From assembly GCA_965204375.1 (NCBI GenBank), contig OZ241986.1, positions 2,336,001 through 2,400,000 of the forward strand: a stretch of 64,000 nt of DNA, written 5' to 3'. Source of the stretch: Candidatus Latescibacterota bacterium (lineage in GTDB: Bacteria; Latescibacterota; UBA2968). How positions within the stretch are numbered: position 1 is the stretch's first letter; each line of letters starts with the position of its first letter. The position numbers and the translations under genes are program-made. Shown in pieces: positions 1 through 41,567 of the stretch. The notes beneath the pieces were generated by a model. The model saw only the letters and a program-made list of their open reading frames with translations. It did no database searches and was not told the DNA's origin.

Positions 1-3000
1 ACCATAATCCGTACCCTCCGTTGCACTGTCACTGCCAGAACCCACGCTCACCGTCACCGTCGTCGCCACTGTCCGGACAGATTCATTCAACGTCGCTGTC
101 ACGCTCACTGTCGTTGCAGAATCATCCTCACCAACCGACGAGGGAGATACAGACAATGTCACCTCAGTCGAAGCCGTATCATCATCAGTAACAGACACCG
201 CTACCTGATCCGCTGTGGTCACAGAGCCATACCCACTCACCGTATGACTGATCGTCGCACTGCCATTCTCCGCATCGTCATCCGCAACCCCACTCACTGT
301 CACTGTCTGTGCTGTGCTCCAATTGCTTGAGGTGAATGTCACAGTCGCTGGGGACACTGTCGCCACACTTACCGCACTACTCCTCGCACTCACCGTCACA
401 TTCCCACCCGGCTTACTGCTCAGTTTCAACGTGTAGGTATTCGTCGATCCCTCATTTATCGTCAGACTGGTCGGATCAACCACCACACCTGCCACGTCGT
501 CATCGGTAATCGTCAGCGACGTCCCATTCACCGTCAGACCTGACGTGCTACCACCCACCGAAACCGTCTCATTCCCCTCCGCAACTGAATCATCACTCGG
601 CGTAATTGTAAACGTCCCGCTACCACTTGATGAACCAGCGGCTATGGTCACTGTAACATCCGCCACAGTACCATAGTCCGTACCCTCCGTTGCACTGTCA
701 CTGCCAGAACCCACGCTCACCGTCACTGTCGTCGCCACCGTCCGGGCAGATTCATTCAGCGTCGCTGTCACCGTTACCGTCGTCGCGCTGTCATCTTCAC
801 CTACCGACGAGGGAGATACAGACAACGCCACCTCAGTCGAAGCCGTATCATCATCAGTTACGGACACCGCCACCTCATCCGCTGTGGTTACGCTACCATA
901 CCCACTCACCGTATGACTGATCGTGGCACTGCCATTCTCCGCATCACCGTCTTGAACCCCACTCACCGTCACGGTCTGTGCTGTGCTCCAATTGCTTGAG
1001 GTGAATGTCACAGTCACTGGGGACACTGTCGCAACACTTACCGCACTACTCCTCGCACTCACCGTCACATTACCACCCGGCTTACTGCTCAGTTTCAACG
1101 TATAGGTATTCGTGCTGCCCTCACCCACTGTCAGCGTCTTGGGGTCAACCACCACACCTGCCATGTCGTCATCGGTTACGGTGATGTCCACAGAGTCCAC
1201 TGTCAGGCTGGACGAATACTTGCTATCACTGCTGGCGGACTGATGACTGATCGTAGCACTGCCATTATCCGCATCATCATCCGAAACCCCACTCACCGTC
1301 ACGGTCTGTGCTGTGCTCCAATTGCTTGAGGTGAATGTCACAGTCACTGGGGACACTGTCGCCACACTTATCGCACTACTCCTCGCGCTCACCGTCACAT
1401 TTCCACCCGGCTTACTGCTCAGTTTCAGCGTATAGGTCTTCGTGTTGCCCTCACCCACTGTCAGGCTGGTTGGGTCAACCACCACACCTGCCATGTCATC
1501 ATCCGTAATCGTCAGTGACGTTCCGTTCACCGTCAGACCTGACGTGCTACCATCCACCGAAACCGTCTCATTCCCCTCCGCAACTGAATCATCACTCGGC
1601 GTGATTGTAAACGTCCCTGTTCCACTCGTCTTTCCCGCTGCTATCGTGACGGTGACATCAGACACAGTACCATAGTCCGTGCCCTCCGTTGCACTGTCAC
1701 TGCCATCCCCTATCGAGACTGTCACCGTCGTCGCCACTGTCCGCGCAGATTCATTCAGCGTCGCTGTCACCGTTACCATCGTCGCACTGTCATCCTCACC
1801 AACTGACGAAGGAGATACAGACAATGTCACCTCAGTCGAAGCCGTATCATCATCAGTGACGGATACCGCCACCTGATCCGCTGTGGTTACGCTACCATAC
1901 CCACTCACCGTATGACTGATCGTCGCACTGCCATTCTCCGCATCGTCATCCGCAACCCCACTCACTGTCACTGTCTGCGCTGTGCTCCAATTGCTGGAAG
2001 TGAATGTCACAGTCACTGGGGACACTGTCGCAACACTTGTCGCACTACTCCTCGCACGCACCGTCACATTCCCACCCGGCTTACTGCTCAGTTTCAACGT
2101 GTAGGTATTCGTGCTGCCCTCACCCACTGTCAGCGTCTTGGGGTCAACCACCACACCTGCCATGTCGTCATCGGTTACGGTGATGTCCACAGAGTCCACT
2201 GTCAGGCTGGACGAATACTTGCTATCACTGCTGGCGGACTGATGACTGATCGTGGCACTGCCATTCTCCGCATCATCATCCGCAACCCCGCTCACCGTCA
2301 CTGTCTGCGCTGTGCTCCAATTGCTTGAGGTGAATGTCACAGTCGCTGGGGACACTGTCGCCACACTTACCGCACTACTCCTCGCACTCACCGTCACATT
2401 CCCACCTGGCTTACTGCTCAGTTTCAACGTGTAGGTATTCGTGTTGCCTTCACCCACTGTCAGACTGGTTGGATTGACAACCACACCTGCCATGTCGTCA
2501 TCCGTAATCGTCAGCGACGTTCCGTTCACCGTCAGACCTGACGTGCTACCATCCACCGAAACCGTCTCATTCCCCTCCGCAACTGAATCGTCCGTCGGCG
2601 TGATTGTAAACGTCCCTGTTCCACTCGTCTTTCCCGCTGCTATCGTGACGGTGACATCAGACACAGTACCATAGTCCGTGCCCTCTACCGCACTGTCACT
2701 GCCATCACCTATCGAGACTGTCACTGTCGTCGCCACCGTCCGCGCATCTGCATTCAGCGTCGCTGTCACTGTCACGGTTGTCGCACTGTCATCCTCACCA
2801 ACCGACGAAGGAGATACAGACAACGCCACCTCGGTCGAAGCCGTATCATCATCACGGATCGTCAAACTCGATGTAGCACCTGTCAGACCCGACACACTGC
2901 CACGCACAGAAACCGTCTCATTACCCTCCGCAACTGAATCGTCCGTCGGCGTAATCGTAAACGTCCCGCTACCACTCGTCTTTTCCGATGCAATCGTCAC

Positions 3001-6000
3001 AGTGACATCAGACACAGTACCATAGTCCGTGCCCTCCGTTGCACTATCACTGCCAGAACCCACAGACACTGTCACCATCGTCGCACCCGGCAATGCCGAC
3101 CCGTTCAACATCACCGTCACGCTCACCGTCACAGAACCACCATTTTCTGTCACACTATTCGGATTCAGACTCAACCCTATCCCGGTCGGTGCCGCATCAT
3201 TATCCATAATTTTCAGACTCGCACCCGTCACCGAAAGAGTGCCCGCAGAGCCGTTCACAGAAACCTGTTCTTCTCCCTCCGATATAGAATCGTCCGTCGG
3301 CGTAATCGTAAACGTCCCTTTACCACTTGTCTTTCCCGCTGCGATCGTCACCGTCACATCAGACACAGTACCATAGTCCGTACCCTCCGTTGCACTGTCA
3401 CCGCTCGCTCCAACAGACACCGTCACCGTCGTCGCATCAGGCAGTATCGACCCTGAAAGCGTTGCCGTCACGCTCACTGTCGTCGCGCTATCACCCTCAC
3501 CTACCATCGCAGGGTCCACAGAAAGAACAATGGTCGGTGCTGTGTCATTGTCGGTAATTGTGCCAGTCGCTTCAAGCGTGCTCCCGCCACCTGATAGCGT
3601 CGCATTCACCGCATTGCTCAACGTCACCTTAAATGTCTCATTACCCTCATATATCGTGTCATCACTAATCGTCACACTAATCGCCTGACTCAGCCCACCC
3701 CCAGAACTGAACGTCACACGACCATCCGTCACTGCTGTATAGTCCTTGCCCGCCTCTGCCGTCCCATCCGCTGTCACCCAACTCACCGTCACGGCCTCGC
3801 TACTCGCCACACTCAAACTCACCGTAAACGTCAGCGTACCTGCACCCTCAGCAGCACTGGCAGAACCTATGCTAAGCACTGGCACTGTGGTTTCTGTAAT
3901 GCTCACCATCACACTTGAAGCTGTCTTACCACTATAGTCACCCGTGCTGCTGACACTATGCGTGACCGTCACTTGTGCATCCACCACCGCATCAGCGTCC
4001 GCAGCCGCACGGACCGTCACGGTCTGCGCTGTGTTCCAAGTATCTGCTGTGAACGTCAGACTCGTCGGACTTGCCGACACATCCGTCCCTGTCGGCACGC
4101 TCACACCAACCGTCACTGACGCTGTTGGTTTAGAGGTCAGTTTCACCGTATATATCTTACTCGAACCCTCATTTATCGTCAGACTGGTTGGATTGACTAC
4201 CACACCTGCCATGTCATCATCCGTAATCGTCAGTGACGTCCCATTCACCGTCAGACCTGACGTGCTACCACTCACTGAAACCGTCTCATTCCCTTCTGCA
4301 ACTGAATCGTCCGTCGGCGTGATTGTAAACGTCCCACTACCACTGGTCTTCCCCGATGCTATCGTGACGGTGACATCAGACACAGTACCATAGTCCGTGC
4401 CCTCCGTCGCACTGTCACTGCCAGAACCCACGCTCACCATCACTGTCGTCGCCACCGTCCGGGCAGATTCATTCAATGTCGCTGTCACACTCACTGTCGT
4501 CGCGCTGTCATCTTCACCAACCGACGAGGGAGATACAGACAACGCCACCTCAGTCGAAGCCGTATCATCATCCGTCACAGACACCGCCACCTCATCCGCT
4601 GTGGTTACGCTACCATACCCACTCACCGTATGACTGATCGTAGCACTGCCATTGTTTGCATCATCATCCGAAACCCCACTCACCGTCACTGTCTGCGCAT
4701 CACTCCAATTGCTGGAAGTGAACGTCACAGTCGCAGGGGACACTGTCGCCACACTTATCGCACTACTCCTCGCACTCACCGTTACATTTCCACCTGGCTT
4801 ACTGCTCAGTTTCAACGTGTAGGTATTCGTGCTGCCCTCACCCACTGTCAGCGTCTTGGGGTCAACCACCACACCTGCCGTCTCGTCATCGGTAACAGAC
4901 ACCGCTACCTGATCCGCTGTGGTCACAGAGCCATACCCACTCACCGTATGACTGATCGTCGCACTGCCATTGTTTGCATCATCATCCGAAACCCCACTCA
5001 CTGTCACTGTCTGCGCATCACTCCAATTGCTTGAGGTGAATGTCACAGTCGCAGGGGACACTGTCGCTACACTTACCGCACTACTCCTCGCACTCACCGT
5101 CACATTCCCACCCGGCTTACTGCTCAGTTTCAATGTGTAGGTATTCGTCGATCCCTCATTTATCGTCAGACTGGTCGGATCAACCACCACACCTGCCACG
5201 TCGTCATCCGTAATCGTCAGTGACGTCCCATTCACCGTCAGACCTGACGTGCTACCACTCACCGAAACCGTCTCATTACCCTCCGCAACTGAATCATCAC
5301 TCGGCGTAATTGTAAACGTCTCGCTACCACTCGTCTGACCCGATGATATCGTCACCGTCACATCAGACACAGTACCATAGTCCGTGCCCTCCGTCGCACT
5401 GTCACTGCCATCCCCTATCGAGACCGTCACCGTCGTCGCCACCGTCCGGACAGATTCATTCAACGTCGCTGTCACACTCACCGTCGTCGCGCTTGCACCC
5501 TCACCAACCGACGAGGGAGATACAGACAACGCCACTGAACTGGAAGCCGTATCATCATCAGTAACAGACACCGCCACCTTATCCGCTGTGGTCACAGAGC
5601 CATACCCACTCACCGTATGACTGATCGTGGCACTGCCATTCTCCGCATCATCGTCTTGAACCCCACTCACTGTCACCGTCTGTGCATCACTCCAATTGCT
5701 TGAGGTGAATGTCACAGTCGCTGGGGACACTGTCGCTACACTTATCGCACCACTACTCGCACTCACCGTCACATTACCACCAGGCTTACTGCTCAGTTTC
5801 AACGTGTAAGTCTTCGTCGATCCCTCACCTACTGTCAGACTGGTTGGATTGACAACCACACCTGCCGTCTCGTCATCGGTAACAGACACCGCTACCTGAT
5901 CCGCTGTGGTTACGCTACCATACCCACTCACCGTATGACTGATCGTCGCACTGCCATTGTTTGCATCATCATCCGAAACCCCACTCACTGTCACTGTCTG

Positions 6001-9000
6001 CGCATCACTCCAATTGCTGGAAGTGAATGTCACAGTCGCTGGGGACACTGTCGCTACACTTATCGCACTACTCCTCGCACTCACCGTTACATTACCACCT
6101 GGCTTACTGCTCAGTTTCAACGTGTAGGTATTCGTGTTGCCTTCACCCACTGTCAGCGTCTTGGGGTCAACCACCACACCTGCCATGTCATCATCCGTAA
6201 TCGTCAGTGACGTTCCGTTCACCGTCAGACCTGACGTGCTACCATCCACCGAAACCGTCTCATTCCCCTCCGCAACTGAATCATCACTCGGCGTAATTGT
6301 AAACGTCCCGCTACCACTTGATGAACCAGCGGCTATGGTCACTGTAACATCCGCCACAGTACCATAGTCCGTACCCTCCGTCGCACTGTCACTGCCATCC
6401 CCTATCGAGACTGTCACCGTCGTCGCCACCGTCCGGACAGATTCATTCAACGTCGCTGTCACACTCACCGTCGTTGCAGAATCATCCTCACCCACTGACG
6501 AGGGAGATACAGACAATGTCACCTCAGTCGAAGCCGTATCATCATCTGTTACGGATACCGCTACTTGATCCGCTGTGGTCACAGAGCCATACCCACTCAC
6601 CGTATGACTGATCGTCGCACTGCCATTATCCGCATCATCATCCGCAACCCCACTCACTGTCACCGTCTGTGCTGTGCTCCAATTGCTTGAGGTGAATGTC
6701 ACAGTCGCTGGGGACACTGTCGCCACACTTATCGCACTACTCCTCGCACTCACCGTCACATTCCCACCCGGCTGGCTACTCAGTTTCAGCGTATAGGTAT
6801 TCGTGCTACCCTCATCTACCGTCAGCGTCTTCGGGTCAACCACCACACCTGCCGTCTCGTCATCGGTAACAGACACCGCTACCTGATCCGCTGTGGTCAC
6901 AGAGCCATACCCACTCACCGTATGACTGATCGTCGCACTGCCATTGTTTGCATCATCATCCGAAACCCCACTCACTGTCACTGTCTGCGCATCACTCCAA
7001 TTGCTTGAGGTGAATGTCACAGTCGCAGGGGACACTGTCGCTACACCTATCGCACTACTCCTCGCACTCACTGTCACATTTCCACCTGGCTGGCTACTCA
7101 GTTTCAGCGTATAGGTATTCGTGCTACCCTCACCCACTGTCAGCGTCTTCGGGTCAACCACCACACCTGCCATGTCGTCATCCGTAATCGTCAGCGACGT
7201 TCCGTTTACCGTCAGACCTGACGTGCTACCACCCACAGAAACCGTCTCATTACCCTCCGCAAACGAATCGTCCGTCGGCGTGATTGTAAACGTACCGCTA
7301 CCACTCGTATTCCCCGATGCTATCGTCACGGTGACATCAGACACTGTACCATAGTCCGTGCCCTCCGTCGCACTGTCATTGGTAGCCCCTATCGAGATCG
7401 TCACCGTCGTCGTCACCGTCCTGGCAGATTCATCCAACGTCGCTGTCACGCTCACCATCGTCGCAGAATCATCCTCACCCACTGACGAGGGAGAAACCGA
7501 CAATGTCACCTCGGTCGAAGCCGTATCATCATCAGTTACGGATACCGCTACTTGATCCGCTGTGGTCACAGAGCCGTATCCACTCACCGTATGACTGATC
7601 GTGGCACTGCCATTCTCCGCATCATCGTCCGCAACCCCACTCACCGTCACTGTCTGCGCTGTGCTCCAATTGCTTGAGGTAAACGTCACAGTCACTGGGG
7701 ACACTGTCGCTACACTTACCGCACTACTCCTCGCACTCACCGTCACATTTCCACCCGGCTTACTGCTCAGTTTCAACGTGTAGGTCTTACTCGAACCCTC
7801 ACCCACTGTCAGACTGGTTGGATTGACAACCACACCTGCCGTCTCGTCATCAGTTACGGATACCGCCACCTCATCCGCTGTGGTTACGCTACCATACCCA
7901 CTCACCGTATGACTGATTGTAGCACTGCCATTGTCTGCATCGTCATCCGAAACCCCGCTCACCGTCACCGTCTGCGCTGTGCTCCAATTGCTTGAGGTGA
8001 ATGTCACAGTCGCAGGGGACACTGTCGCTACACTTACCGCACTACTCCTCGCACTCACCGTCACATTTCCACCCGGCTGACTGCTCAGCTTCAACGTGTA
8101 GGTATTCGTGCTACCCTCATCTACCGTCAGCGTCTTGGGGTCAACCACCACACCTGCCGTCTCGTCATCAGTTATGGTGATGTCCACAGAGTCCACTGTC
8201 AGACTGGACGAATACTTGCTATCACTGCTGGTGGACTGATGACTGATCGTCGCACTGTCGTTGTTCGCATCATCATCCTGAACCCCACTCACCGTCACTG
8301 TCTGTGCTGTGCTCCAATTGTCTGAGGTAAATGTCACAGTCACTGGGGACACTGTCGCCACACTTGTCGCACTACTCCTCGCACTCACCGTTACATTACC
8401 ACCAGGCTTACTGCTCAGTTTCAGCGTATAGGTATTCGTGCTGCCCTCATCTACCGTCAGCGTCTTCGGAGCAACCACCACACCTGCCATGTCGTCATCC
8501 GTAATCGTCAGTTCCGTCCCATTCACCGTCAGACCTGTGGCACTGCCACTCACCGAAACCGTCTCATTCCCCTCCGCAACTGAATCGTCCGTCGGCGTGA
8601 TTGTAAACGTACCGCTACCACTTGTCTGACCCGATGCGATCGTCACCGTCACATCCGACACGGTACCATAGTCCGTGCCCTCTACCGCACTGTCACTGGT
8701 AGTTCCTATCGAGACTATCACCGTCGTCGCCACCGTCCGGGCAGATTCATTCAACGTCGCTGTCACCGTTACCGTCGTCGCGCTGTCATCTTCACCTACC
8801 GACGAGGGAGATACAGACAACGCCACCTCAGTCGAAGCCGTATCATCATCAGTTACGGACACCGCCACCTCATCCGCTGTGGTTACGCTACCATACCCAC
8901 TCACCGTATGACTGATTGTAGCACTGCCATTCTCCGCATCATCATCCGAAACCCCGCTCACTGTCACCGTCTGTGCTGTGCTCCAATTGCTTGAGGTGAA

Positions 9001-12000
9001 TGTCACAGTCACTGGGGACACTGTCGCCACACTTATCGCACTACTCCTCGCACTCACCGTCACATTCCCACCTGGCTTACTGCTCAGTTTCAACGTGTAA
9101 GTATTCGTCGATCCCTCACCCACTGTCAGCGTCTTCGGGTCAACCACCACACCTGCCGTCTCGTCATCCGTCACAGACACCGCCACTTGATCTGCTGTGG
9201 TCACGGAGCCATACCCACTCACCGTATGACTGATTGTAGCACTGCCATTGTCTGCATCATCATCCGCAATCCCGCTCACCGTTACCGTCTGTGCTGTGCT
9301 CCAATTGCTTGAGGTGAACGTCACAGTCACTGGGGACACTGTCGCCACACTTATCGCACTACTCCTCGCACGCACCGTCACATTTCCACCCGGCTTACTG
9401 CTCAGTTTCAGCGTATAGGTCTTCGTGTTGCCCTCACCCACTGTCAGGCTGGTTGGGTCAACCACCACACCTGCCATGTCGTCATCCGTAATCGTCAGTG
9501 ACGTTCCGTTCACCGTCAGACCTGACGTGCTACCATCCACCGAAACCGTCTCATTCCCCTCCGCAACTGAATCATCACTCGGCGTGATTGTAAACGTCTC
9601 GCTACCACTCGTCTGACCCGATGCGATCGTCACCGTCACATCCGACACAGTACCATAGTCCGTGCCCTCCGTCGCACTGTCACTGCCATCCCCTATCGAG
9701 ACCGTCACCGTCGTCGCCACCGTCCGGGCAGATTCATTCAACGTCGCTGTCACGCTCACTGTCGTTGCAGAATCATCCTCACCAACCGACGAGGGAGATA
9801 CAGACAATGTCACCTCAGTCGAAGCCGTATCATCATCCGTCACAGACACCGCTACTTGATCCGCTGTGGTCACAGAGCCATACCCACTCACCGTATGACT
9901 GATCGTCGCACTGCCATTCTCCGCATCGTCATCCGCAACCCCACTCACTGTCACTGTCTGTGCTGTGCTCCAATTGCTTGAGGTAAATGTCACAGTCGCT
10001 GGGGACACTGTCGCCACACTTACCGCACTACTCCTCGCGCTCACCGTTACATTACCACCCGGCTTACTGCTCAGTTTCAGCGTATAGGTCTTGCTCGAAC
10101 CCTCATTTATCGTCAGACTGGTTGGATTGACTACCACACCTGCCGTCTCGTCATCAGTTACGGATACCGCTACCTGATCCGCTGTGGTCACAGAGCCGTA
10201 TCCACTCACCGTATGACTGATCGTAGCACTGCCATTGTCTGCATCGTCATCCGAAACCCCGCTCACCGTCACTGTCTGCGCTGTGCTCCAATTGCTTGAG
10301 GTGAATGTCACAGTCGCAGGGGACACTGTCGCCACACTTACCGCACTACTCCTCGCACTCACCGTCACAGTCCCACCTGGCTGACTGCTCAGTTTCAACG
10401 TATAGGTCTTACTCGAACCCTCACCCACTGTCAGCGTCTTGGGGTCAACCACCACACCCGCCATGTCGTCATCCGTAATCGTCAGTGACGTCCCATTCAC
10501 CGTCAGACCTGTGGCACTGCCACCCACCGAAACCGTCTCATTACCCTCCGCAACTGAATCGTCCGTCGGACTAATTGTAAACGTCCCGCTACCACTTGTA
10601 TTCCCCGATGCTATCGTCACCGTCACATCAGACACAGTACCATAGTCCGTGCCCTCCGTGGCACTGTCACTACCATCCCCTATCGAGACTATCACCGTCG
10701 TCGCCACCGTCCTGGCAGATTCATTCAATGTCGCTGTCACGCTCACTGTCGTCGCGCTGTCATCTTCACCAACCGACGAGGGAGATACAGACAAAGACAC
10801 CTCGGTCGAAGCCGTATCATCATCCGTCACAGACACCGCTACTTGATCCGCTGTGGTGACAGAGCCATACCCACTCACCGTATGACTGATCGTAGCACTG
10901 CCATTCTCCGCATCATCGTCAGCAACCCCGCTCACTGTCACCGTCTGCGCTGTGCTCCAATTGCTTGAGGTGAACGTCACAGTCGCAGGGGACACTGTCG
11001 CCACACTTACCGCACTACTCCTCGCACTCACCGTCACATTTCCACCCGGCTTACTACTCAGTTTCAACGTATAGGTATTCGTGTTGCCCTCACCCACTGT
11101 CAACGTCTTCGGATCAACCACCACACCCGCCGTCTCGTCATCAGTTACGGATACCGCTACTTGATCCGCTGTGGTCACAGAGCCATACCCACTCACCGAA
11201 TGACTGATCGTGGCACTGCCATTGTCTGCATCGTCATCCGCAACCCCGCTCACCGTCACTGTCTGCGCTGTGCTCCAATTGCTTGAGGTGAATGTCACAG
11301 TCGCAGGGGACACTGTCGCCACACTTACCGCACTACTCCTCGCACTCACCGTCACATTACCACCCGGCTTACTGCTCAGTTTCAGCGTGTAGGTATTCGT
11401 CGATCCCTCATCCACTGTCAGCGTCTTGGGGTCAACCACCACACCTGCCATGTCGTCATCCGTAATCGTCAGTGACGTCCCATTTACCGTCAGACCTGAC
11501 GTGCTACCATCCACCGAAACCGTCTCATTACCCTCCGCAACTGAATCGTCCGTCGGCGTAATTGTAAACGTCTCGCTACCACTCGTCTGACCCGATGAGA
11601 TCGTCACCGTCACATCAGACACAGTACCATAGTCCGTGCCCTCCGTTGCACTGTCACTGCCAGAACCCACGCTCACCGTCACCGTCGTCGCCACTGTCCG
11701 GACAGATTCATTCAACGTCGCTGTCACGCTCACTGTCGTTGCAGAATCATCCTCACCAACCGACGAGGGAGATACAGACAATGTCACCTCAGTCGAAGCC
11801 GTATCATCATCAGTAACAGACACCGCTACCTGATCCGCTGTGGTCACAGAGCCATACCCACTCACCGTATGACTGATCGTCGCACTGCCATTCTCCGCAT
11901 CACCGTCTTGAACCCCACTCACTGTCACCGTCTGCGCATCACTCCAATTGCTGGAAGTGAACGTCACAGTCGCAGGGGACACTGTCGCTACACTTATCGC

Positions 12001-21000: not shown

Positions 21001-21540
21001 ACCATAGTCCGTGCCCTCTACCGCACTGTCACCGGTAGCTCCGACAGACACCGTCACCGTCGTTGCATCAGGCAGTATCGACCCTGAAAGCGTTGCCGTC
21101 ACTGTCACAGTCGTTGCGCCGTCACCCTCACCTACCATATCAGGCGACACAGACAGACGAACACCTGTCGGTGCTGTGTCATTGTCTGTAATCGTCAGCT
21201 CCGTTCCGTTCACCGTAAGAGAGGACGAACCCGTCACTGAAACCGTCTCATCCCCTTCCGCTATCGAATCATCATTCGGCTTAATCGTAAACGTCCCCGT
21301 ACTACTTGTCAGACCCGATGCTATCGTCACCGTCACATCCGACACGGCACTATAGTCCGTGCCCTCCGTTGCACTGTCACTGCCAGAACCCACGCTCACC
21401 GTGACCGTCGTCGCCACTGTCCGCGCATCTGCATTCAACGTCGCTGTCACACTCACCGTCGTCGCGCCGTCACCCTCACCAACCGACGAAGGAGATACAG
21501 ACAACGCCACCTCAGTCGAAGCCGTATCATCATCACGGAT
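1..21540 (-). repeat. Intragenic array of ~318-bp (type A, 106 aa) and ~351-bp (type B, 117 aa) modules with occasional canonical Calx-beta modules
   Basis: Homologous antisense ORFs recur at 987-bp spacing (8675/9662/10649/11636; 4397/5384), equal to 351+318+318, and at 2385-bp spacing (17645/20030). Confidence 0.9.
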
Positions 21541-27500: not shown

Positions 27501-30500
27501 AACTCACCGTCACGGCCTCACTACTCGCTACACTCAAACTCACCGTGAACGTCAGCGTACCGGCGTCCTCAACAGCACTCCCATTTTCTATACTCAGCAC
27601 GGGCACTATTGTCTCACTGATGCTCACCACCACGCTCTCAGCCATCTCACCACTATAGTCACCTGTGCTACTGACACTGTGCGTAATCGTCACTTGATCA
27701 TCCACCACGGCATCATCGTCCGTAGCCGCGCTCACCGTCACGGTCTGTGCGGTGTTCCAGTTATCCCCTGTAAATGTCAGACTCGCCGGACTCGCCGACA
27801 CATCCGTCCCTGTCGGCACGCTCACTCCAACTGTCACAGACGCTGTCGGCTCAGAGGTCAGCTTCAGTGTGTAGGTCTGCGTGCTCCCCTCATCCACCGT
27901 CAGACTGGTCGGAGCAACCAACACATTAGGCGTCTCGTCATCCGTTACAGATACCGCCACCTGATCCGCTGTGGTTACAGAACCATAACCACTTACCTCA
28001 TGGCTGATCGTCGCACTGCCATTCTCTGCATCATCGTCCTGAACCCCACTCACTGTTACCGTCTGTGCCTCATGCCAGTTGTCCGCTGTAAACGTCACAG
28101 ACATTGGGGACACTGTCGCAACACTTATCGCACCACTGCTCACCGTTACCGTCACATCGCCATCAGGCTGGCTGCTCAGCTTCAGCGTGTATGTACCAGT
28201 GTTGCCCTCACTCACCGTCAGACTCGTCGGAGCAACCAACACACCCGCCATGTCGTCATCCGTAATCGTCAACTCTATACCCGTCACTGTCAGACCCGAC
28301 GTGCTACCACTCACAGAAACTGTCTCATTCCCCTCCGAAACCGAATCATCCATTGGCGTCAGCGTGAACGTTCCTGTCCCACTCGTCTGACCCGCAGGAA
28401 TCGTCACACTGAAGTCATTCACCGCTCCGTAGTCCTCCGGCGAAGTCGCTGTCCCATCACCCACGCTCACCGTCACTGTCGTGCTCCCATTCAGTGTCGT
28501 ACTTCCATCTATCGTCGCTGTCACGGAAACCGTCGTTGCGCCATCACCCTCACCAACCACCGCAGGTGACAAAGACAGACGAACACCCGTCGGTGCTGCA
28601 TCGTCATCCGTGATTGTCCCGGTCGCTTCAAGCGTCGTCGCGCCACCTGAAAGCGTCGCATTCACCGCATTGCTCAGCCTCACCTTAAATGTCTCGTTAC
28701 CCTCAGCTATATTATCATCACTGATCGTCACACTCACGGTCTTGCTCAACGCATCCCCAGCACTGAACGTCACGCGACCATCCGTCACTGCTGTATAGTC
28801 CTTGCCTGCCTCTGCTGTTCCATCCTCAGTCGCCCATGTCACTGTCACTGCCTCTCTACTCGCCACACTCAAACCCACCGTGAACGTCAGCGTACCGGCG
28901 TCCTCAACAGCACTCCCATTTTCTATATTCAGCACGGGCACGGTTGTCTCACTGATGCTCACCACCACGCTCTCAGCCATCTCACCACTATAGTCACCTG
29001 TGCTACTGACACTGTGCGTAATCGTCACCTGATCATCCACCACGGCATCATCGTCCGTAGCCGCACGCACCGTCACCGTCTGTGCCTCGTTCCAATTATC
29101 TGCTGTGAATGTCAGACTCGTCGGACTTGCCGACACATCTGTCCCTGTCGGCACTGTCACTTCAACTGTCACAGACGCTGTCGGCTCAGAGTTCAGTTTC
29201 ACAGTGTATATGCCAGTGTTCCCCTCATCCACCGTCAGGCTGGTCGGAACAACCAAAACGCCAAGCGCCTCGTCATCCGTTACAGATACCGCCACCTGAT
29301 CCGCTGTGGTTACAGAACCATAACCACTTACCTCATGGCTGATCGTCGCACTGCCATTCTCTGCATCATCGTCCTGAACCCCACTCACTGTTACCGTCTG
29401 TGCCTCATGCCAGTTGTCCGCTGTAAACGTCACAGAACCTGGGGATATTGTCGCAACATCTATCGCACCACTGCTCACCGTTACCGTCACATCGCCACCC
29501 GGCTGACTGCTCAGTTTCAAGGTGTAGGTCTGCGTTGCACCCTCATCCACCGTCAGGTTGGTCGGATTGACAACCACACCAGTCGTCTCGTCATCGGTGA
29601 CAGATACCGCCACAGGATCCGCTGTGGTCACGCTGCCATAACCACTCACCTCATGACTGATCGTAGCACTGCCATTATCCGCATCATCGTCCTGAACGCC
29701 AGCCACTGTCACCGTCTGCGCATCCTTCCAATTGTCCGGCGTGAATGTCAAAGACTCTGGGGATACTGTGGCTACACTTGCAGCACCACTACTCGCACGC
29801 ACCGTCACATCGCCACCTGGCTGACTGCTCAGTTTCAACGTGTACGTACCAGTGCTCCCCTCACCCACCGTCAAGCTGGTCGGAGCAACCAACACACCTG
29901 CCATGTCGTCATCCGTAATCATCAGCGATGTTCCATTCACCGTCAGACCTGACGTGCTACCACTCACCGAAACTGTCTCATTCTCCTCCGAAACCGAATC
30001 ATCACTCGGACTAATCGTAAACGTACCGCTACCACTTGACGAATTAGCTGCTATCGTCACCGTCACATCAGACACTGTGCCATAGTCTGTACCCTCCGTC
30101 GCACTGTCGCCCACATCACCCACAGACACCGTTACCGTCGTCGCGCCTACCAGTGTCGTACTTCCATCTATCGTCGCTGTCACGGAAACCGTCGTTGCGC
30201 CATCACCCTCACCAACCATATCAGGAGACACAGACAGACGAACACCCGTCGGTGCTGCATCGTCATCCGTGATTGTCCCGGTCGCTTCAAGCGTTGTCTC
30301 ACCACCGCTCAGCGTCGCATTCACTGCATTACTCAGCCTCACCTTAAATGTCTCGTTACCCTCAGCTATATTATCATCACTGATCGTCACACTCACGGTC
30401 TTGCTCAACGCATCCCCAGCACTAAACGTCACGCGACCATCCGTCACTGCTGTATAGTCCTTGCCTGCCTCTGCTGTTCCATCCGCTGTCACCCAACTCA

Positions 30501-32736: not shown

Positions 32737-33000
32737 TAGGGTTGACTTTTGGGTTATGAAGTAGCAACATTTTGGTACAACCTTAAAAACACACAAACAG
32801 AGATGGTCTATTTGACACCACTCTATTTTGAGTACTCAGAGTGTGTAAAAGTGCCTACTGCTATCGCAGAGCAGATTGGGCAGATTATCTTTTTTATGCC
32901 GCCTTTGTAAAAAGAGACTACAGATGACTTCAGGAGGGATAGCACGAACTATGGATATAGGTAATCTATATTCACTTTTGACACACTCTATATAGCATAC

Positions 33001-33016
33001 AGCAAAAAGTGTGCCA
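33001..33016 (-). promoter_or_regulatory. sigma54 (RpoN) -24/-12 promoter for the giant gene
   Basis: Minus strand reads TGGCAC-ACTTT-TTGCT, an exact TGGCAC-N5-TTGCW match, oriented toward the giant ORF; predicted +1 near 32990. Confidence 0.85.
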
Positions 33017-33092
33017 GTTTATACCAAATGAGCTAATTCCTTGTAGATAAAGGAGTTGGGGCAGATGAGGTATGATTCTCAGATCTTTGAAT

Positions 33093-33246
33093 TGTTACAG
33101 AATGCGACACTACAAATTGCTCAGGAGTGCATATCTACTGAGTTAGGTATGAAACAAATATTTGTTTTATAGAGGATTTATGGAAAAATTAAAGGTGGGA
33201 TATAAGGATTTGTTGCCATTTGAAACAAATGTCGCATTTTACAACA
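33093..33246. promoter_or_regulatory. Three TGT-N11-ACA pseudo-palindromes, candidate upstream activator sequences
   Basis: TGTTACAGAATGCGACA (33093-33109), TGTTGCCATTTGAAACA (33211-33227), TGTCGCATTTTACAACA (33230-33246); about 80-230 bp upstream of the -24 box. Confidence 0.6.
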
Positions 33247-33396
33247 AATATGGCAAATACGACCTCGTTCCAAAAAATTTTTCATTTTTTTGAAGGAAAT
33301 ATTCTATATTATGTCATGTGCGACTTTAAATAGACAGGAGGAGGTTCCTTGGGCATGTTGTAAAATTTCTATAAATTGTTTAAAAACAATATGTTA

Positions 33397-33409
33397 CCCC
33401 CCCCCCCCC
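33397..33409. repeat. C13 homopolymer tract in AT-rich intergenic region
   Basis: atgtta-CCCCCCCCCCCCC-gaatttttc seen directly. Confidence 0.9.
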
Positions 33410-33678
33410 GAATTTTTCAAATTCAGAATCGCTATCTTATGCGATTTTTTTGTACTGCCCGCTGAGATAACTCTAAAAATTATCACACCCAATCTGTCCA
33501 TATTTATTCGGTATTACTCTATGGACATTTTGAAGTCACACATCGCGTACTTTTCTGTATTGGTTATAGCACTCTGGGATATTGCGATGGCACTGCTTTC
33601 CACGACCTGAGTGGATACCACAACGCACTGTAAAAGTGTAGAAATTTAAAAAAGTCACTCCAACAGGATGCGAATAGT

Positions 33679-35790
33679 ATGACCGATGCAAAAATAATGA
33701 TTGTCGAAGACAATGCCTCCGGCGTTGCCCACCTTGAAGAATGCCTGAAAAACCTGGGATACACAGTGTGCGCTGCAGTTTCGTGCGGACGTCAAGCCCT
33801 TGAAAAAGCCGCGGACACGCATCCCGACCTGGCCCTGGTCAATCTCTGTCTCGAAGGGGAGATCACAGGCCCGGAAATAGCCGAGCAGATCGGCAGCCGG
33901 TTCGACATTCCCGTGTTATATCTGACTGACGAAGCCGAGGGAGACCTGTTGCAACAGGCACAGGCGACCACTCCCTTCGGCTATGTGCTGAGACCCTTCG
34001 AGGAGCAACAACTCCACCTGAACATCCTGACTGCCCTCGCGATGCACAAGAAGGAACGCCGGCACAAAGAGACAGAGGTCAGGTTGAAACAGACAATCAA
34101 CAAATTGGAAGATTTCACCCACCTCATGGAAGCGGTATTCAACAGCATGAATGAAGGTGTGGTTGCGGTTGATGAAAACAGGATGCTCATGTTTTACAAT
34201 TCAAGCGCGGGGCGGATCGCCGGGGAGCATCCAGAGCCAGTAGAGGCAGATATCTACACATGGGCCGAAAGGTACGGTGTTTTCAAGCCCGATGGAGAAC
34301 TATTTGGTTCGTTGGATGATAGTCCGATTGGCATTTCTTTGAAAGGCGGAACAACGGACGAAGTCGAGGTACTCATACGCAATGAATTTAAGCCTGAAGG
34401 CGTTCACATCAGGGTTAACAGCAGACCTCTGCTGAGAGAAACAGGTGTTTTGAAAGGGGCCGTGATCGTCTTCCGCGACATCACCACGGAAAAAAAAGTA
34501 ACCGCGGAATTGGACAAAACAATGGGGGAGTTACGCTATCAAAGCGAACTCATGGAAACCTCGTTCAAGAGCATCAGCGACGGCATAGTCGTCGCCGACG
34601 CCGAGGGGAAATTCCTCTACGTCAATCCCGGTGCCGAACACATCGTCGGGATGGGCATAACGGACGGAACCCTGAATGAATGGGTCAAAAAATACGGCAT
34701 TTACTATCCCGACCGGGAAACACCGCTGAAAACGGAGGCTCTGCCCCTGGTCCGCGCCATACACCACGGCGAATCGACAGATGAGCAAGATCTGTTCATA
34801 CGCAACCGAAACAGGCCGGCCGGTGTTTTTATCCGTATGAGCGGATGGCCGCTACTCGATAATACAGGCGGGATCAGGGGAGGTGTAATCATTTTCCGCG
34901 ACGTTACCAGGAGCGTGCTCGCCGAGGAGGCTCTGGATCGGGCATTCGCGCAAGGGCGCATGGAGATCGTGGATACCATTCTCCACAACATCGGCAACGC
35001 CATCACCAGTGTCACCACGGGTATTGAGACTGTACGCAGGAACCTGACGAATGATCAAGCCGGACGCCGTCTTTCCGCGCTGGCCATGGCGATAAAGGCG
35101 CACCGGGAAGACTGGACCAATTACATCGAGAATGACCCGCAGGGCCAGAAGGTTATGCCGTTCATCATCGAACTTGCCGAAGACTTCTCCAGGCAGAACG
35201 AAGAACTGATGAAGACGGTCAGTCGCGTCAGGGACAGGGCGAATCGCATCGCCGATATCATCCGCACACAAAAGACACTCGACAGTGCCAACATGGATCG
35301 CAAGGACATCGACCTTCAAGACGCGCTCTCGAGTCCTTTCAGGGTATTGAGAGATTCGCTCAACAAAAGGGGGATCCATACCAGCATCGACTGCGAAAAC
35401 GCACCGCAGGAAATTCGTATCCAAGAGAGCCAGTTTCACCAGATGCTGATCAACCTGGTTAAAAATTCGATTGAAGCCATTGATGATCTCGCAGGTACTC
35501 ATGGATTCGACGAAACGCCCCGTATTGGGATAGAGGCCAGCATCAGAGACGATTTTTTTTATCTACAAGTAATCGACAACGGCATCGGCATAAAAAATAA
35601 AGACACCAGGGTGATCTTCTCCCCTAATTATACCACAAAAGAATCTGGGACCGGGCTCGGTCTCCATTCGGCGGCCAATTTCGTCATTGCTTCGGGTGGA
35701 AAAATTCAGGCTTTGAGCGAGGGCACTGGTAAGGGCACGACGATGCGCATCATGCTGCCGCTTTCCTCGGTGACGACCAGTGACGGTTGA
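33679..35790 (+). CDS. Soluble sensor histidine kinase: atypical REC, two PAS, HisKA-like, HATPase
   Basis: REC-like N-terminus KIMIVEDN; two PAS-like segments ending V(I/V)IFRD-type motifs; H-box ILHNIGN; N-box NLVKNSIEAI; DNGIGI; GTGLGL; no obvious TM helix. Confidence 0.9.
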   Translation: MTDAKIMIVEDNASGVAHLEECLKNLGYTVCAAVSCGRQALEKAADTHPDLALVNLCLEGEITGPEIAEQIGSRFDIPVLYLTDEAEGDLLQQAQATTPFGYVLRPFEEQQLHLNILTALAMHKKERRHKETEVRLKQTINKLEDFTHLMEAVFNSMNEGVVAVDENRMLMFYNSSAGRIAGEHPEPVEADIYTWAERYGVFKPDGELFGSLDDSPIGISLKGGTTDEVEVLIRNEFKPEGVHIRVNSRPLLRETGVLKGAVIVFRDITTEKKVTAELDKTMGELRYQSELMETSFKSISDGIVVADAEGKFLYVNPGAEHIVGMGITDGTLNEWVKKYGIYYPDRETPLKTEALPLVRAIHHGESTDEQDLFIRNRNRPAGVFIRMSGWPLLDNTGGIRGGVIIFRDVTRSVLAEEALDRAFAQGRMEIVDTILHNIGNAITSVTTGIETVRRNLTNDQAGRRLSALAMAIKAHREDWTNYIENDPQGQKVMPFIIELAEDFSRQNEELMKTVSRVRDRANRIADIIRTQKTLDSANMDRKDIDLQDALSSPFRVLRDSLNKRGIHTSIDCENAPQEIRIQESQFHQMLINLVKNSIEAIDDLAGTHGFDETPRIGIEASIRDDFFYLQVIDNGIGIKNKDTRVIFSPNYTTKESGTGLGLHSAANFVIASGGKIQALSEGTGKGTTMRIMLPLSSVTTSDG

Positions 35791-35812
35791 TTGAACGTTG
35801 AGAGGATGCTTT

Positions 35813-37675
35813 ATGAAATACGAGAACAACCGCGTCCTGATCGTCGATGATCAGCGCGAGATCCACGACGACTTCACAGAAATGTTGCGTATTGCGCCGC
35901 CGTCAGCCAATGACCTGACGGCGGCGTTCATGCACGAGGAAGAGGAAAACTTTTTGCCGGAGTTCGAGCTTCTGCACGCGAACAACGGCGAGGAAGCATA
36001 TAAAATCATCGCGACGGGAAAGGAATCGAACCGTCCCATCGCCGTCGCTTACATCGACATCAGAATGCCTCCGGGCATTGATGGTATAGAGACGATCCGC
36101 CGGGCGAGAAGAATCGACCGCGATATTGAGGTCGTCATCATGACCGCGTACACCGACAAATCGCTACCCGAGATCGTCCAGGACATGGAATTGCTGCACA
36201 AACTGCTCTATATCAGAAAACCTTTTACGCACGAGGAGATACAGCAGATCACCCTGTCCCTGGTTGGGAAGTGGAACATCGAACAGGAACTATCAGATAA
36301 ACGGCGGCAACTCACCACCAGTCACCGGAGACTGGAAGCTGTACTCAATGCTACTGGAGACGCCATTGCGATGCACAATAGCGCTGGATACCTGATCTTC
36401 GCCAACCAGTTGTACGAGAGACTACTGGGTCTGAAGGAAAGCGAACTAAAGAAAATGCCACCCCGCGATATCGAAGCGCGTATCAAAGAGCTGTTCCGGG
36501 ATCCAGATCTGGGCGACATGGCGGGAAATTTCCCGCTCAATGGCGGCAAAGTGGTGAAAACGACCAGCGAGGGACTGAAGTCGAGGCTGTTCTATTGCTC
36601 TACCGCACCGGTGTGCGACATCCGGGAAGAGGTGATCGGCAACCTCGCCGTGTATCGGGATGTGTCAAAGGAGATTGAGGTCGAGCAAGTGAAGGCCGAG
36701 TTGCTGCGCTTGCGCGCCGAACGACCTGCTTTATTTCCCGACCTGATCGGCACCAGCTCCGTAATGCAGCAGATGTACGCGCTGATGCAGCAGGCCGCCG
36801 AAAGCGATATCACAGTGTTCATTCGCGGCGAGAGCGGCACAGGTAAGGAATTGGTAGCCAACTCATTGCACGCCAACGGCCCGCGCAAGGATGGGCCGTT
36901 CGTAGCTCTCGATTGCGCCGCCATTCCCGAAACACTCATCGAAAGCGTGTTGTTCGGACATGAACGAGGGGCTTTCACGGGAGCGATAACGCAGAGAATC
37001 GGGGCCTTCATGCGCGCCAATGGAGGCACGCTCTTTCTCGACGAGATCGGCGACATGCCGTATAGCCTGCAAGGCAAGCTATTGCGCGTTTTGCAGGAAC
37101 GGGAAATCCAGCGGATCGGAGGAATAGATCCCATTCCCATCGACATTCGCGTGATAACAGCGACCAACAAGGACCTGGAGCGCGCAGTAAGAGAGGGCAA
37201 GTTCCGCCAGGATCTGTTCTATCGCATCGCTGCCTTCCCCATCCCGATTCCACCGCTGAGAGATCGGCCTGAAGATATTTCCCTGCTGGTCAAGCATTTT
37301 CTCGAAAAATATACTGTCCAGACCGGCAAATCCATAAGCGGCATTTCTCCCCTTGCCCTGCGCCTGTTGCTGCAGTACGATTGGCCGGGCAATGTGCGCG
37401 AGCTGGAGAACGCGATAGCGCGCGCTGTGTTGTTGGAGACGACCGGGGTGCTGCAAGCAGATAACCTGCCGTCTCAGCTATCGTCGACCGTTGCTTCGAA
37501 AAGAGACCTCTCGGCATCACTGGAGATCCTGCCACTGGCCGAGATCGAGCGACAGGCCCTGATCCATGCGATCAACGCCACGGACAACAACATGACTCAG
37601 GCCGCCCAGGCACTGGGTATTAATCGGACGACCCTGTACCGGAAGTTAAAGAAATACAACATTGTCAGAGGTTGA
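35813..37675 (+). CDS. NtrC/AtoC-family sigma54-dependent activator: REC, PAS-like, AAA+, Fis HTH
   Basis: VLIVDD and YIDIRMPPGIDG receiver; Walker A GESGTGKE; GAFTGA; LFLDEIG; WPGNVREL; AAQALGINRTTLYRKLKKY. ATG 35813 follows AGAGGA. Confidence 0.95.
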   Translation: MKYENNRVLIVDDQREIHDDFTEMLRIAPPSANDLTAAFMHEEEENFLPEFELLHANNGEEAYKIIATGKESNRPIAVAYIDIRMPPGIDGIETIRRARRIDRDIEVVIMTAYTDKSLPEIVQDMELLHKLLYIRKPFTHEEIQQITLSLVGKWNIEQELSDKRRQLTTSHRRLEAVLNATGDAIAMHNSAGYLIFANQLYERLLGLKESELKKMPPRDIEARIKELFRDPDLGDMAGNFPLNGGKVVKTTSEGLKSRLFYCSTAPVCDIREEVIGNLAVYRDVSKEIEVEQVKAELLRLRAERPALFPDLIGTSSVMQQMYALMQQAAESDITVFIRGESGTGKELVANSLHANGPRKDGPFVALDCAAIPETLIESVLFGHERGAFTGAITQRIGAFMRANGGTLFLDEIGDMPYSLQGKLLRVLQEREIQRIGGIDPIPIDIRVITATNKDLERAVREGKFRQDLFYRIAAFPIPIPPLRDRPEDISLLVKHFLEKYTVQTGKSISGISPLALRLLLQYDWPGNVRELENAIARAVLLETTGVLQADNLPSQLSSTVASKRDLSASLEILPLAEIERQALIHAINATDNNMTQAAQALGINRTTLYRKLKKYNIVRG

Positions 37676-40616: not shown

Positions 40617-41567
40617 TCATCTGTTTAATCCGCGTTTAATTTCCCGATTCAACTTCGCGGCCTTCACCAACTCGCGCTCCAGCAATTGGTAATAGGTCGC
40701 AGAATCCATCGCCGCCTTTTTCTTCACCAGAGCCTGCACCTCATCAATCGCCTTGCCATAAGCGGCAACAAGCGCGGGCGAAGCGCCCTTGGGAACACGA
40801 AAATTGAGCAAAAAACAACGGTCTGCCAACATTCCATCGCCCGCGTCGATATCGGACAGACGCGTACCCAACCCATCGCCATTATCGTCCAGAATCGCGT
40901 TCTCTGTCGCAATCAGCCCCTCACTCAAAAACCAGGCGTCTGTCAGCGAAGATGCCTGGGTGCAAATCTCCAGAACCGAAATGCGGTCATCGCGATTTTG
41001 ATCGGCACTGCCATCCTCCAATGCCTGCACAAAAAAACGCATAAATTGCGTGGCATTGCGCTGATCCGTACTGCGCGTACTCGCGCATATAATACGCCCA
41101 TCCCGACTCAGAGCATTGACAAAAGGCGCACTCATCGACGCGCCATTGACAACAATAATGCGTCGCGCGGATAACATCTTCAAAAATCCATCCAGATCCT
41201 CCGCCGTCAAATCCGCACCGGGAATATTCAATTTCCCAACCTGACGCCGATAGCTTCCGTGCCCAATTAAAAAAATGAACACATCGTCACCCGACTTTAC
41301 CCGCTCCGACAAACCGCGGAATACATTGCGGATGCCTTTTATTGATGAATTACCATCGGCATTCTCATCCGTCTCATTCACCAATAGCACATTTGCCGCG
41401 GGATGATCGCATCGATCAATCAGCACCCGACGCAACCGCTGCCCCCAATCGTCAAACCGCTCGGAATACTCGCCCTCTCCACCACTACCGCTGATAATCA
41501 CATCGAAAACAGCGGCATTTGCCTGCGCCAGCATCAACACCCAAATAGGGAAAATCCATAATTTCAT
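40617..41567 (-). CDS. Secreted caspase/peptidase C13-like fold protein, probably lacking the catalytic Cys
   Basis: Signal peptide MKLWIFPIWVLMLAQANA; FLIGHGS; VVNGASMSAPF at the expected Cys site; EF-hand-like DQNRDDRISVLE; ATGA overlap with upstream gene. Confidence 0.55.
   Translation of the reverse strand: MKLWIFPIWVLMLAQANAAVFDVIISGSGGEGEYSERFDDWGQRLRRVLIDRCDHPAANVLLVNETDENADGNSSIKGIRNVFRGLSERVKSGDDVFIFLIGHGSYRRQVGKLNIPGADLTAEDLDGFLKMLSARRIIVVNGASMSAPFVNALSRDGRIICASTRSTDQRNATQFMRFFVQALEDGSADQNRDDRISVLEICTQASSLTDAWFLSEGLIATENAILDDNGDGLGTRLSDIDAGDGMLADRCFLLNFRVPKGASPALVAAYGKAIDEVQALVKKKAAMDSATYYQLLERELVKAAKLNREIKRGLNR

Follow-up and report, generated by a model that had tools for sequence, protein, structure and literature searches.

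The question raised by this locus is whether a regulator encoded next to an extremely large gene is the switch of that gene, and of that gene only. The window, that is, the whole 64-kb stretch of DNA analysed here, covers positions 2,336,001–2,400,000 of the 6.34-Mb single-contig genome (50.8% G+C) of a Candidatus Latescibacterota bacterium. On its minus strand it carries a giant gene encoding a protein with Calx-beta and leucine-rich repeat (LRR) domains, and divergently from it, on the plus strand, the genes of a PAS-domain histidine kinase and of a sigma-54-dependent activator; the nearest named relatives of the activator gene come from metagenome-assembled genomes (MAGs) titled Candidatus Latescibacterota. 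The first-pass annotation of this region described a self-contained module, in which the activator would be a dedicated switch for the giant gene. We find that the promoter of the giant gene and the putative activator sites upstream of it form a conserved cassette of about 260 bp that recurs elsewhere in the genome and in related genomes. Hence, the activator probably is a switch for the giant gene, but a non-dedicated one, and it probably has at least three targets in this genome.

The candidate promoter is TGGCACACTTTTTGCT (positions 33001–33016, minus strand), a sigma-54 -24/-12 element of the form TGGCAC-ACTTT-TTGCT with the predicted transcription start near 32990. This is the sole exact match to TGGCAC-N5-TTGCW in the window, while shuffled sequences contained 0.09 matches on average, and 8 of 100 shuffles had at least one. 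Motifs with one mismatch are not above the chance level (two found, 2.99 expected). On the genome scale, we observed 55 strict sites against about 12 expected by chance, as estimated from base frequencies of one quarter. One gene of the genome, an open frame of 501 codons, exceeds the PF04552 cut-off and is assigned as rpoN. The exact element pointing at the giant gene, noticed in the first-pass annotation, is thus upheld both by the low expectation and by the GG and GC dinucleotides being retained in all 18 copies of the cassette aligned below.

Three TGT-N11-ACA sites, starting at 33093, 33211, and 33230, are situated about 90–245 bp upstream of the promoter. A fourth one, at 32906, lies in the predicted leader and is unconserved. 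Over the window as a whole, TGT-N11-ACA alone shows no enrichment, with 13 occurrences against 23.1 expected and at least 13 in 98 of 100 shuffles; the three upstream sites count because they are clustered within 154 bp and fit a narrower pattern, TGTYKCA-N3-TGMRACA, kept in the 18 cassette copies; so the earlier observation of three sites at enhancer distance describes a real feature. The centre of dyad C (TGTTACAGAATGCGACA, 33093–33109) lies about 90 bp upstream of the -24 element, whereas dyads B (TGTTGCCATTTGAAACA, 33211–33227) and A (TGTCGCATTTTACAACA, 33230–33246), identified by the motif and by the cassette alignment, lie farther upstream, dyad A forming the distal end of the cassette. 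Between the promoter and the first dyad there is a conserved A/T-rich block, CAAagaATTAgcTC in the promoter orientation (33024–33046), which we take to resemble a site of the integration host factor (IHF), and the conserved central block contains a perfect 16-bp palindrome, AAACAAATATTTGTTT (33152–33167).

This region recurs twice in the same genome: window positions 32991–33548 match genome positions 5,312,171–5,312,724 with 86% identity (copy 2), and positions 33002–33232 match 2,126,255–2,126,481 with 78% identity (copy 3). Copy 2 holds the promoter and all three dyads, and copy 3 holds the promoter and two dyads; a profile search of the genome yielded no full cassette beyond these three copies. 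The comparison covered 21 genomes of the genus (this one and 20 congeners) and 10 genomes from five other genera of the family; below, G numbers denote the compared genomes and L numbers denote loci. By BLASTN, the cassette is detected in 9 of the 20 congeners, with one to three copies per genome, and in no genome of the other genera (0 of 10).

We aligned 18 copies from 10 genomes. The similarity among them always begins at the -12 element and extends over the promoter, the A/T-rich block, dyad C, the conserved centre of about 90 bp with the palindrome, and dyads B and A. CTGG and TTGC are invariant (18/18), one copy has TGGCAT and one TGGCGC, and the five-base spacer is variable. The three dyads are retained across the aligned copies, their 47 ungapped sites yielding the consensus TGTYKCA-N3-TGMRACA, and the conservation is even along the 260 bp (0.67–0.89 per 20 columns). 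The cassette is non-coding, as the indels between the copies are not multiples of three; in particular, a small open reading frame (ORF) in it (ATG 33066 behind AAGGAG) was rejected, since 10-nt and 1-nt indels among the three copies of this genome break the frame. An Rfam scan of 32600–33800 produced only a chance-level match (E = 0.77). In 16 of the 18 copies a same-strand ORF of at least 172 aa starts within about 300 nt downstream, and in the other two only small ORFs follow. A genome scan with the dyad matrix gave 11 sites scoring at least 18 bits, compared to one in the reversed control, and 8 of the 11 fall within the three cassettes. Single sites at genome positions 126,847, 2,387,936, and 5,488,245/447 were considered as marks of additional regulon members and rejected, there being no -24/-12 motif within 600 bp. 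Taken as a whole, the alignment supports the promoter and the dyads being a conserved functional unit.

The cassettes are linked to homologs of the activator. Thirteen of the 18 are situated within 5.5 kb of such a homolog (58–83% identity), in several arrangements. The cassette may be divergent from the activator gene, as in the window (L081), or directly follow it (L082, L092), or be found 5.4 kb downstream (L091). In four loci (L085, L088, L089, L090) it precedes a kinase-kinase-activator operon, which implies autoregulation. In two more loci (L084, 9419–12092; L087, 9477–12030) one activator gene lies between two outward-facing cassettes, the presumed promoters of its targets. All 10 genomes of the genus with a BLAST-detectable cassette have the activator (E ≤ 1e-100), and two further activator-carrying genomes have a diverged cassette, revealed by the profile search, directly after the activator gene, giving 12 of 12; the remaining 9 of the 21 genomes match neither the cassette query nor the activator query. 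Outside the genus, the profile search found diverged cassettes in 11 loci with relatives of the activator, either preceding the activator or kinase gene or following the activator gene. The recognition helix of the helix-turn-helix (HTH) domain, LGINRxTLYRKLKKY, is nearly constant among the cassette-linked activators. These observations point to this activator family as the likely partner of the cassette.

As for the two regulatory proteins, the first-pass description of a divergent pair formed by a soluble PAS kinase and a GAFTGA activator is borne out by domain matches and by neither protein having a hydrophobic segment. The kinase (33679–35790, plus strand) has the composition REC-PAS-PAS-HATPase_c with the H-box LHNIGNAIT; its N-terminal receiver (REC) domain (33679–34080) is a pseudo-receiver, with Asn55 at the place of the phosphorylated Asp and Arg instead of the conserved Lys. 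The activator (35798–37675, plus strand; likely start ATG 35813) is composed of a REC domain with an insertion, a PAS domain, Sigma54_activat, and HTH_8. Its AAA+ domain (PF00158, E = 2.3e-70) retains GAFTGA and the Walker A motif GESGTGKE, its C-terminal HTH is of the Fis type (PF02954, E = 2.6e-16), and the receiver residues, as read and aligned, are intact (DD, Asp in AYIDIRMPP, Thr in IMTAY, Lys in IRKPF). Among NCBIfam models the best matches are AtoC, PrdR, PrsR, and NtrC, and none of the 25 listed models, including the named equivalogs AtoC, PrsR, NtrC, NifA, and ZraR, reaches its cut-off (for AtoC, 388.5 bits versus 714). Of the 19 sigma-54 activator hits in the genome, one belongs to this subfamily, and the next best is 47% identical over the AAA+ part only. 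In four related loci (L081, L082, L084, L087) a pseudo-receiver and a PAS domain are fused directly to the AAA+ and HTH domains, forming activators of about 606 aa to which the usual mode of phosphorylation would not be available; the receiver in L085 retains both Asp and Lys.

We thus consider it likely that the neighbouring activator switches the giant gene via the cassette, and that the giant gene belongs to a small regulon together with the genes behind copies 2 and 3. Under this reading, the soluble PAS kinase would phosphorylate the receiver of the activator, the activator would bind the three dyads of the cassette, and, once phosphorylated, would remodel the sigma-54 polymerase at the promoter, turning on the 14,078-codon gene. 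The same activator would serve copy 2, fronting genes of a GPP34-P450 fusion, an acyltransferase, and a glycosyltransferase, and copy 3, fronting the gene of a LacI-like protein lacking the HTH domain.

If the sigma-54 promoter is real but the adjacency accidental, the cassette would be served by some other activator, either one of the other 18 encoded in the genome or one of the type observed in L083, with a Ser/Thr kinase and a GAF domain. Such an arrangement would suit the five of the 18 cassettes that are unlinked to the activator family, the absence of a cassette-type promoter of its own from the kinase-activator pair of the window, and the L083 locus (3938–8764) itself, where the cassette drives a GT2 glycosyltransferase gene followed by a gene for a 1,608-aa fusion of Ser/Thr kinase, AAA16, TPR, GAF, and sigma-54 activator domains. 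It is, however, unlikely, given that the other 13 cassettes are linked, that the cassette and the activator co-occur in all 12 activator-carrying genomes while nine genomes match neither query, and that the linkage persists outside the genus, with diverged cassettes both before and after the activator gene. The succession of genes in L083 hints at a regulatory cascade between two activators.

Returning to regulation by the neighbouring activator, one should ask whether it is restricted to the giant gene. Copy 2 (L059) fronts a gene for a GPP34-cytochrome-P450 fusion (L059 8053–10032; genome positions 5,310,053–5,312,032, minus strand), followed by genes for an acyltransferase-3 and a GT1-type glycosyltransferase, and on its other side there is a gene for a 1,147-aa LRR protein. 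Copy 3 fronts the gene of the HTH-less LacI-like protein, in the same arrangement as in G025 (L060 9310–10215; L080 8975–9880). In this genome, the copy 3 cassette is immediately preceded by a full-length LacI gene, and the HTH-less protein could be a ligand-binding decoy or a remnant. In the relatives, the first downstream gene encodes an LRR protein in L084, L086, and L087, and WD40 proteins are encoded downstream of the cassette in L092 and by the fourth gene in L082. A protein with cadherin, fn3, PKD, and leishmanolysin-like domains is encoded downstream in L087, and a fatty-acid hydroxylase in L082. In L091 a 172-aa ORF is followed by NfeD and FloA. Only small ORFs follow a cassette in L081, one of them a 66-aa stand-alone Fis-type HTH (9734–9934), and in L084. 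LRR_8 matches occur in about 13 frames of the genome, and two of these frames flank cassettes.

These data bear on the module as it was initially proposed, closed and with no other targets. The adjacency and the divergent orientation in the window fit it, as does the absence of any other activator of this subfamily from the genome. Nevertheless, we regard it as quite improbable: two more full copies, with three and two dyads plus the promoter, precede unrelated genes, the cassettes of relatives front LRR, WD40, cadherin, and enzyme genes as well as the regulator operon, and a giant ORF is divergent from the kinase-activator pair in none of the 24 related loci. The epithets "self-contained" and "dedicated" are therefore not supported, the cassette being found at two further loci with no activator nearby and before many other genes in relatives. 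Neither is the architecture a new one, as had been suggested: a two-component kinase and an NtrC-type activator encoded beside the target, with dyads upstream of a -24/-12 promoter, constitute a textbook sigma-54 layout. Judging by the related loci, the divergent layout is lineage-specific.

While the divergent layout proposed for relatives did not hold, genes of large, presumably outer-membrane-anchored surface proteins do recur beside the activator gene, in six congeners and several loci outside the genus. In the congeners (G012, G015, G016, G021, G025, G030), a same-strand frame of 2,196–4,345 codons with the C-terminal domain of the giant protein directly follows the activator gene, and the spacer between them contains a diverged cassette, recognizable by TTGGCACGGTTTTTGCA (or CTGGCAC...) and by dyads in pairs. 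Outside the genus, TGGCAC-N5-NTGC is observed 250–330 nt after the activator stop codon in 13 of 20 loci, about 75 nt before the next ORF where checked. Eight Calx-beta ORFs (858–1,777 aa) are situated downstream in seven such loci (L008, L009, L010, L011, L014, L016, L019), one of the eight, in L011, being located about 3.5 kb further on, behind the first. The downstream protein in L019 passes PF03797 (43.5–44.4 bits). In BLASTP comparisons with the giant protein, these activator-linked Calx-beta proteins match it in the Calx-beta units only, with no match in the C-terminus.

The cassette and the giant gene themselves are found together in a 783-nt contig, about 92% identical to the window, from run X5, an RNA library. 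This contig connects the 5' end of the giant gene (32738) with the cassette (33001), the 262 nt at 32739–33000 being replaced by 10 different letters. Thus, a close relative shares the arrangement of the cassette and the giant gene without the 262-nt leader segment; the contig is not evidence of a transcript from this promoter, as it spans coding sequence, promoter, and enhancer. In the window, the predicted leader (32680–32990, minus strand) is about 310 nt long, counting to ATG 32679, with ATG 32736 as an alternative start. A contig of an about 92%-identical relative occurs in a run labelled as a coral metagenome.

Several observations weigh against the giant gene being switched by the neighbouring activator through the cassette. 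In G014, which has the closest ortholog pair (83%), serS is upstream of the pair, and the cassette lies 5.4 kb downstream, facing a 172-aa ORF; in G022, with an 82% ortholog, the cassette fronts a WD40 protein gene and not a giant one. Five cassettes (L059, L060, L080, L083, L086) have no activator of the family within 10 kb on either side. The co-occurrence counts make the case look stronger than it is, as the genomes of the genus are kin and hence not independent, and the dyad matrix was partly trained on sites of this very genome (8 of 47). In eight further large or giant genes that share this C-terminal domain (about 2.2–11.2 thousand codons), the upstream 2.3–2.9 kb or so contain neither the cassette nor the strict sigma-54 motif. 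Finally, the binding, the control by phosphorylation, the sigma-54 dependence, and the location and function of the giant protein at the surface are all predictions read from sequence.

Since those eight genes lack the cassette, neither size nor the type of anchor predicts cassette control, and a general role of the cassette in driving the giant genes that share this domain was rejected (0 of 8 examined). Frames of 5,864–11,240 codons that end in the same barrel domain, with no cassette upstream, are present in G020, G021, G025, G011, G022, and G024 (L119–L125). The genus, by this comparison, is the carrier of a family of giant surface proteins that would be under other control.

A different explanation of the repeated 260-bp block, that it is a mobile or selfish repeat with an incidental match to the sigma-54 motif, is very unlikely. 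The block does recur within and between genomes with unrelated flanks, and the copy in the window is 90% similar to copy 2, suggesting a recent internal duplication. On the other hand, a genome has only one to three copies, each of them pointing at the start of a downstream gene and bounded by the -12 element. Moreover, the copies most similar to each other are those from orthologous loci (L060 and L080, 89%; L085 and L090, 92%), and hence the block appears to be inherited rather than hopping. No terminal inverted repeats were noticed in the alignments, though no repeat search was made for them, and there was no Rfam match of note.

The phase variation initially suggested to gate the module, by slipped-strand mispairing at a C13 tract (33397–33409), is the least probable of the alternatives: a 13-base homopolymer does lie between the cassette and the kinase gene, and has a C8 equivalent in the paralogous copy 2, but it is about 380 bp upstream of the giant gene promoter and beyond the dyads, its stretch is missing upstream of the kinase gene in L002 and in the X5 relative, and in each of the runs X1–X3 one contig spans the tract identically to the window, with no length variant listed. 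These runs are two samples from one study, possibly the source of the genome, and contain the whole stretch in the form of contigs; as contigs drop rare variants, this result is an absence of support and not a disproof. Runs X4 and X6–X9 contain small shares of the stretch, from which nothing follows about habitat.

The rest of the intergenic region belongs to the regulator side. A block at 33254–33316 (plus strand) is conserved upstream of the regulator genes of relatives (L002 7497–7555, L081, L084) and probably is the promoter region of the regulator operon. Dyads A and B abut this block, and thus negative autoregulation of the operon is possible. No good-scoring plus-strand sigma-54 promoter for the kinase operon was found in 33017–33700. 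The stretch at 33317–33548, which holds the C13 tract, is common only to copy 2 of this genome and has no counterpart upstream of the kinase gene in L002.

The giant gene is a single open frame on the minus strand, extending from TTG 32796 to 9,440 bp beyond the start of the window (14,078 codons from the TTG). Its likely start is either ATG 32679 or ATG 32736; from ATG 32679 the product comprises 14,039 aa and 1.40 MDa, in line with the earlier estimate of more than 1 MDa. The window includes its 10,893 N-terminal codons (1–32679, minus strand), defined by the open frame, Pfam, and a hidden Markov model (HMM) of its own repeats. Hence, the coordinates initially given for the module leave out the last 3,146 codons of the gene, which are outside the window. 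The N-terminus, MSLRWALVALALLLDANPAAAQ, reads by eye as a signal peptide, with a putative cleavage site after MSLRWALVALALLLDANPAAA and before Q.

Pfam corroborates the Calx-beta and LRR content noted at first: Calx-beta (PF03160) matches the protein, analysed in three pieces, with E-values of 2.8e-185, 8.1e-115, and 3.8e-73, and LRR families match at residues about 2138–2884 of the first piece. All 53 Calx-beta matches in the genome fall inside this gene. The HMM iterated on the repeats of the protein itself yields 113 units of about 100 aa each, followed by a 455-aa tail; as this profile is broader than Pfam Calx-beta, we call the units Calx-beta-like. Four gaps of 218–263 aa separate some of the units (aa 2084–2301, 2403–2621, 2724–2965, and 3514–3776 in the numbering from TTG), three of which (2084–2965) fall in the LRR range.

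The tail, which ends with ...QYRQQF, lies outside the window. The last 400 aa of the protein match PF03797, the autotransporter beta-domain, with E = 3e-5 and 24.3 bits, the cut-off of 26 bits not being reached. The same C-terminal domain closes frames in 17 of the 20 other genomes of the genus, the longest of 10,886 and 11,240 codons. An AlphaFold2 model of the tail built with 16 relatives (17 sequences) has a mean predicted local distance difference test (pLDDT) score of 70.4 and consists of a helix, with pLDDT below 50, and then about 18 strands; a single-sequence model was unusable (pLDDT 31). Foldseek retrieves outer-membrane barrels in general with template modelling (TM) scores of 0.35–0.56, including TonB-dependent receptors and the barrels of EstA, EspP, Hbp, and BrkA. 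A profile of the tail domain had no match among the sequences of the PDB. We call the tail a predicted outer-membrane barrel anchor resembling the autotransporter domain, and do not file it as type Va. The giant product most likely is a secreted fibre at the cell surface for contact with the host or the matrix. If the anchor is confirmed, this protein, with its 1.4 MDa and all Calx-beta domains of its genome, would be an extreme case among outer-membrane-anchored surface proteins.

Elsewhere in the window, at 41564–49996 on the minus strand, there is a row of genes encoding BatA/VWA, DUF58/VWA, DUF4175, and GATase1-like proteins, unrelated to the cassette; presumably, it resembles an operon of the Bat aerotolerance type.

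No genomic marks of sponge and coral symbionts are better known than eukaryote-like repeat proteins and the GPP34-P450 fusion. In PMC11706023, the GPP34-P450 architecture is reported as exclusive to sponge symbionts, and LRR, WD40, and FN3 proteins are described for sponge-associated Latescibacterota MAGs in PMC12993501. The kinds of proteins treated there (LRR, WD40, fibronectin, GPP34-P450) are found among the targets of the cassette; the difference is that these papers, in the text searched, catalogue genes and describe no shared cis-element, regulator, or signal, the text of the former containing no words beginning with "regulat" or "sigma" and that of the latter no "sigma". Full-text searches yielded no paper that combines sigma-54 with eukaryotic-like proteins and sponges, and the term "enhancer-binding protein" is absent from the 10 best-ranked of 74 papers with related terms.

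The novelty lies in the content and not in the mechanism, which is the standard NtrC-type one: through an enhancer-promoter cassette that is conserved and used repeatedly, a giant Calx-beta/LRR protein, further repeat proteins of the eukaryote-like type, and a GPP34-P450 fusion are tied to a single two-component switch of an uncultured phylum. More tentatively, and with the odds somewhat against it, one PAS-sensing two-component sigma-54 switch may command a host-interaction regulon of the genus, new eukaryote-like effectors being wired in by placing the cassette in front of their genes. The wired genes would then be those of the giant Calx-beta/LRR fibre, the LRR, WD40, and cadherin proteins, and the GPP34-P450 fusion, and, if true, neither a regulator nor a cis-code would have been proposed before for the eukaryote-like proteins that uncultured symbionts of animals encode. 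In any case, a short conserved cassette tied to one activator family is a portable test object for organisms that cannot be cultivated.

Among the known systems, the closest are those of the NtrB/NtrC type (NtrBC-glnAp2, DctBD-dctA, PilSR-pilA, AtoSC). They share with the system described here the kinase and the activator of the composition REC-AAA+(GAFTGA)-Fis-HTH, a bend-like A/T block between the GG-N10-GC promoter and dyads situated about 90–250 bp upstream, and the regulator genes adjoining the target, some of the relatives considered here presumably also being autoregulated. The differences are that no equivalog cut-off is reached, that an extra PAS domain is situated between REC and AAA+, that the kinase is soluble and has a pseudo-receiver, that the whole 260 bp and not the sites alone are conserved and re-used, and that the targets encode giant and repeat proteins rather than being metabolic genes.

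With respect to the target, a parallel is provided by FleQ and LapA of Pseudomonas, where a sigma-54-family activator is also tied to a very large repetitive surface adhesin. However, FleQ acts on adhesin and exopolysaccharide genes largely via cyclic di-GMP and is not known to use a -24/-12 promoter dedicated to them, and the export of LapA is by type I secretion, whereas the giant gene has a consensus -24/-12 promoter and its product a predicted C-terminal outer-membrane barrel.

The type Va autotransporters (EspP, Hbp, BrkA, EstA) resemble the giant protein in having a signal peptide (putative in the giant protein), a long passenger, and a C-terminal barrel ending in an aromatic residue; a helix is predicted before the barrel, PF03797 matches weakly, and the beta-domains of EstA, EspP, Hbp, and BrkA are among the Foldseek hits. 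At the same time, the PF03797 match is below the cut-off, the model has about 18 strands instead of 12, and barrels of TonB-dependent receptors score as well or better. To our knowledge, a Calx-beta passenger of about 13,600 aa would be far longer than any in type Va.

In size and design, the giant protein is comparable to the giant adhesins of about 1.5 MDa, such as the Marinomonas ice-binding adhesin and those of the SiiE/LapA RTX type, which use type I secretion and carry C-terminal RTX signals. Both have about a hundred tandem beta-sandwich units forming a long fibre, and in both the repeats are of the calcium-binding Calx-beta or Ig-like kind; unlike these adhesins, the giant protein has a putative N-terminal signal peptide, LRR inserts, and a predicted C-terminal barrel.

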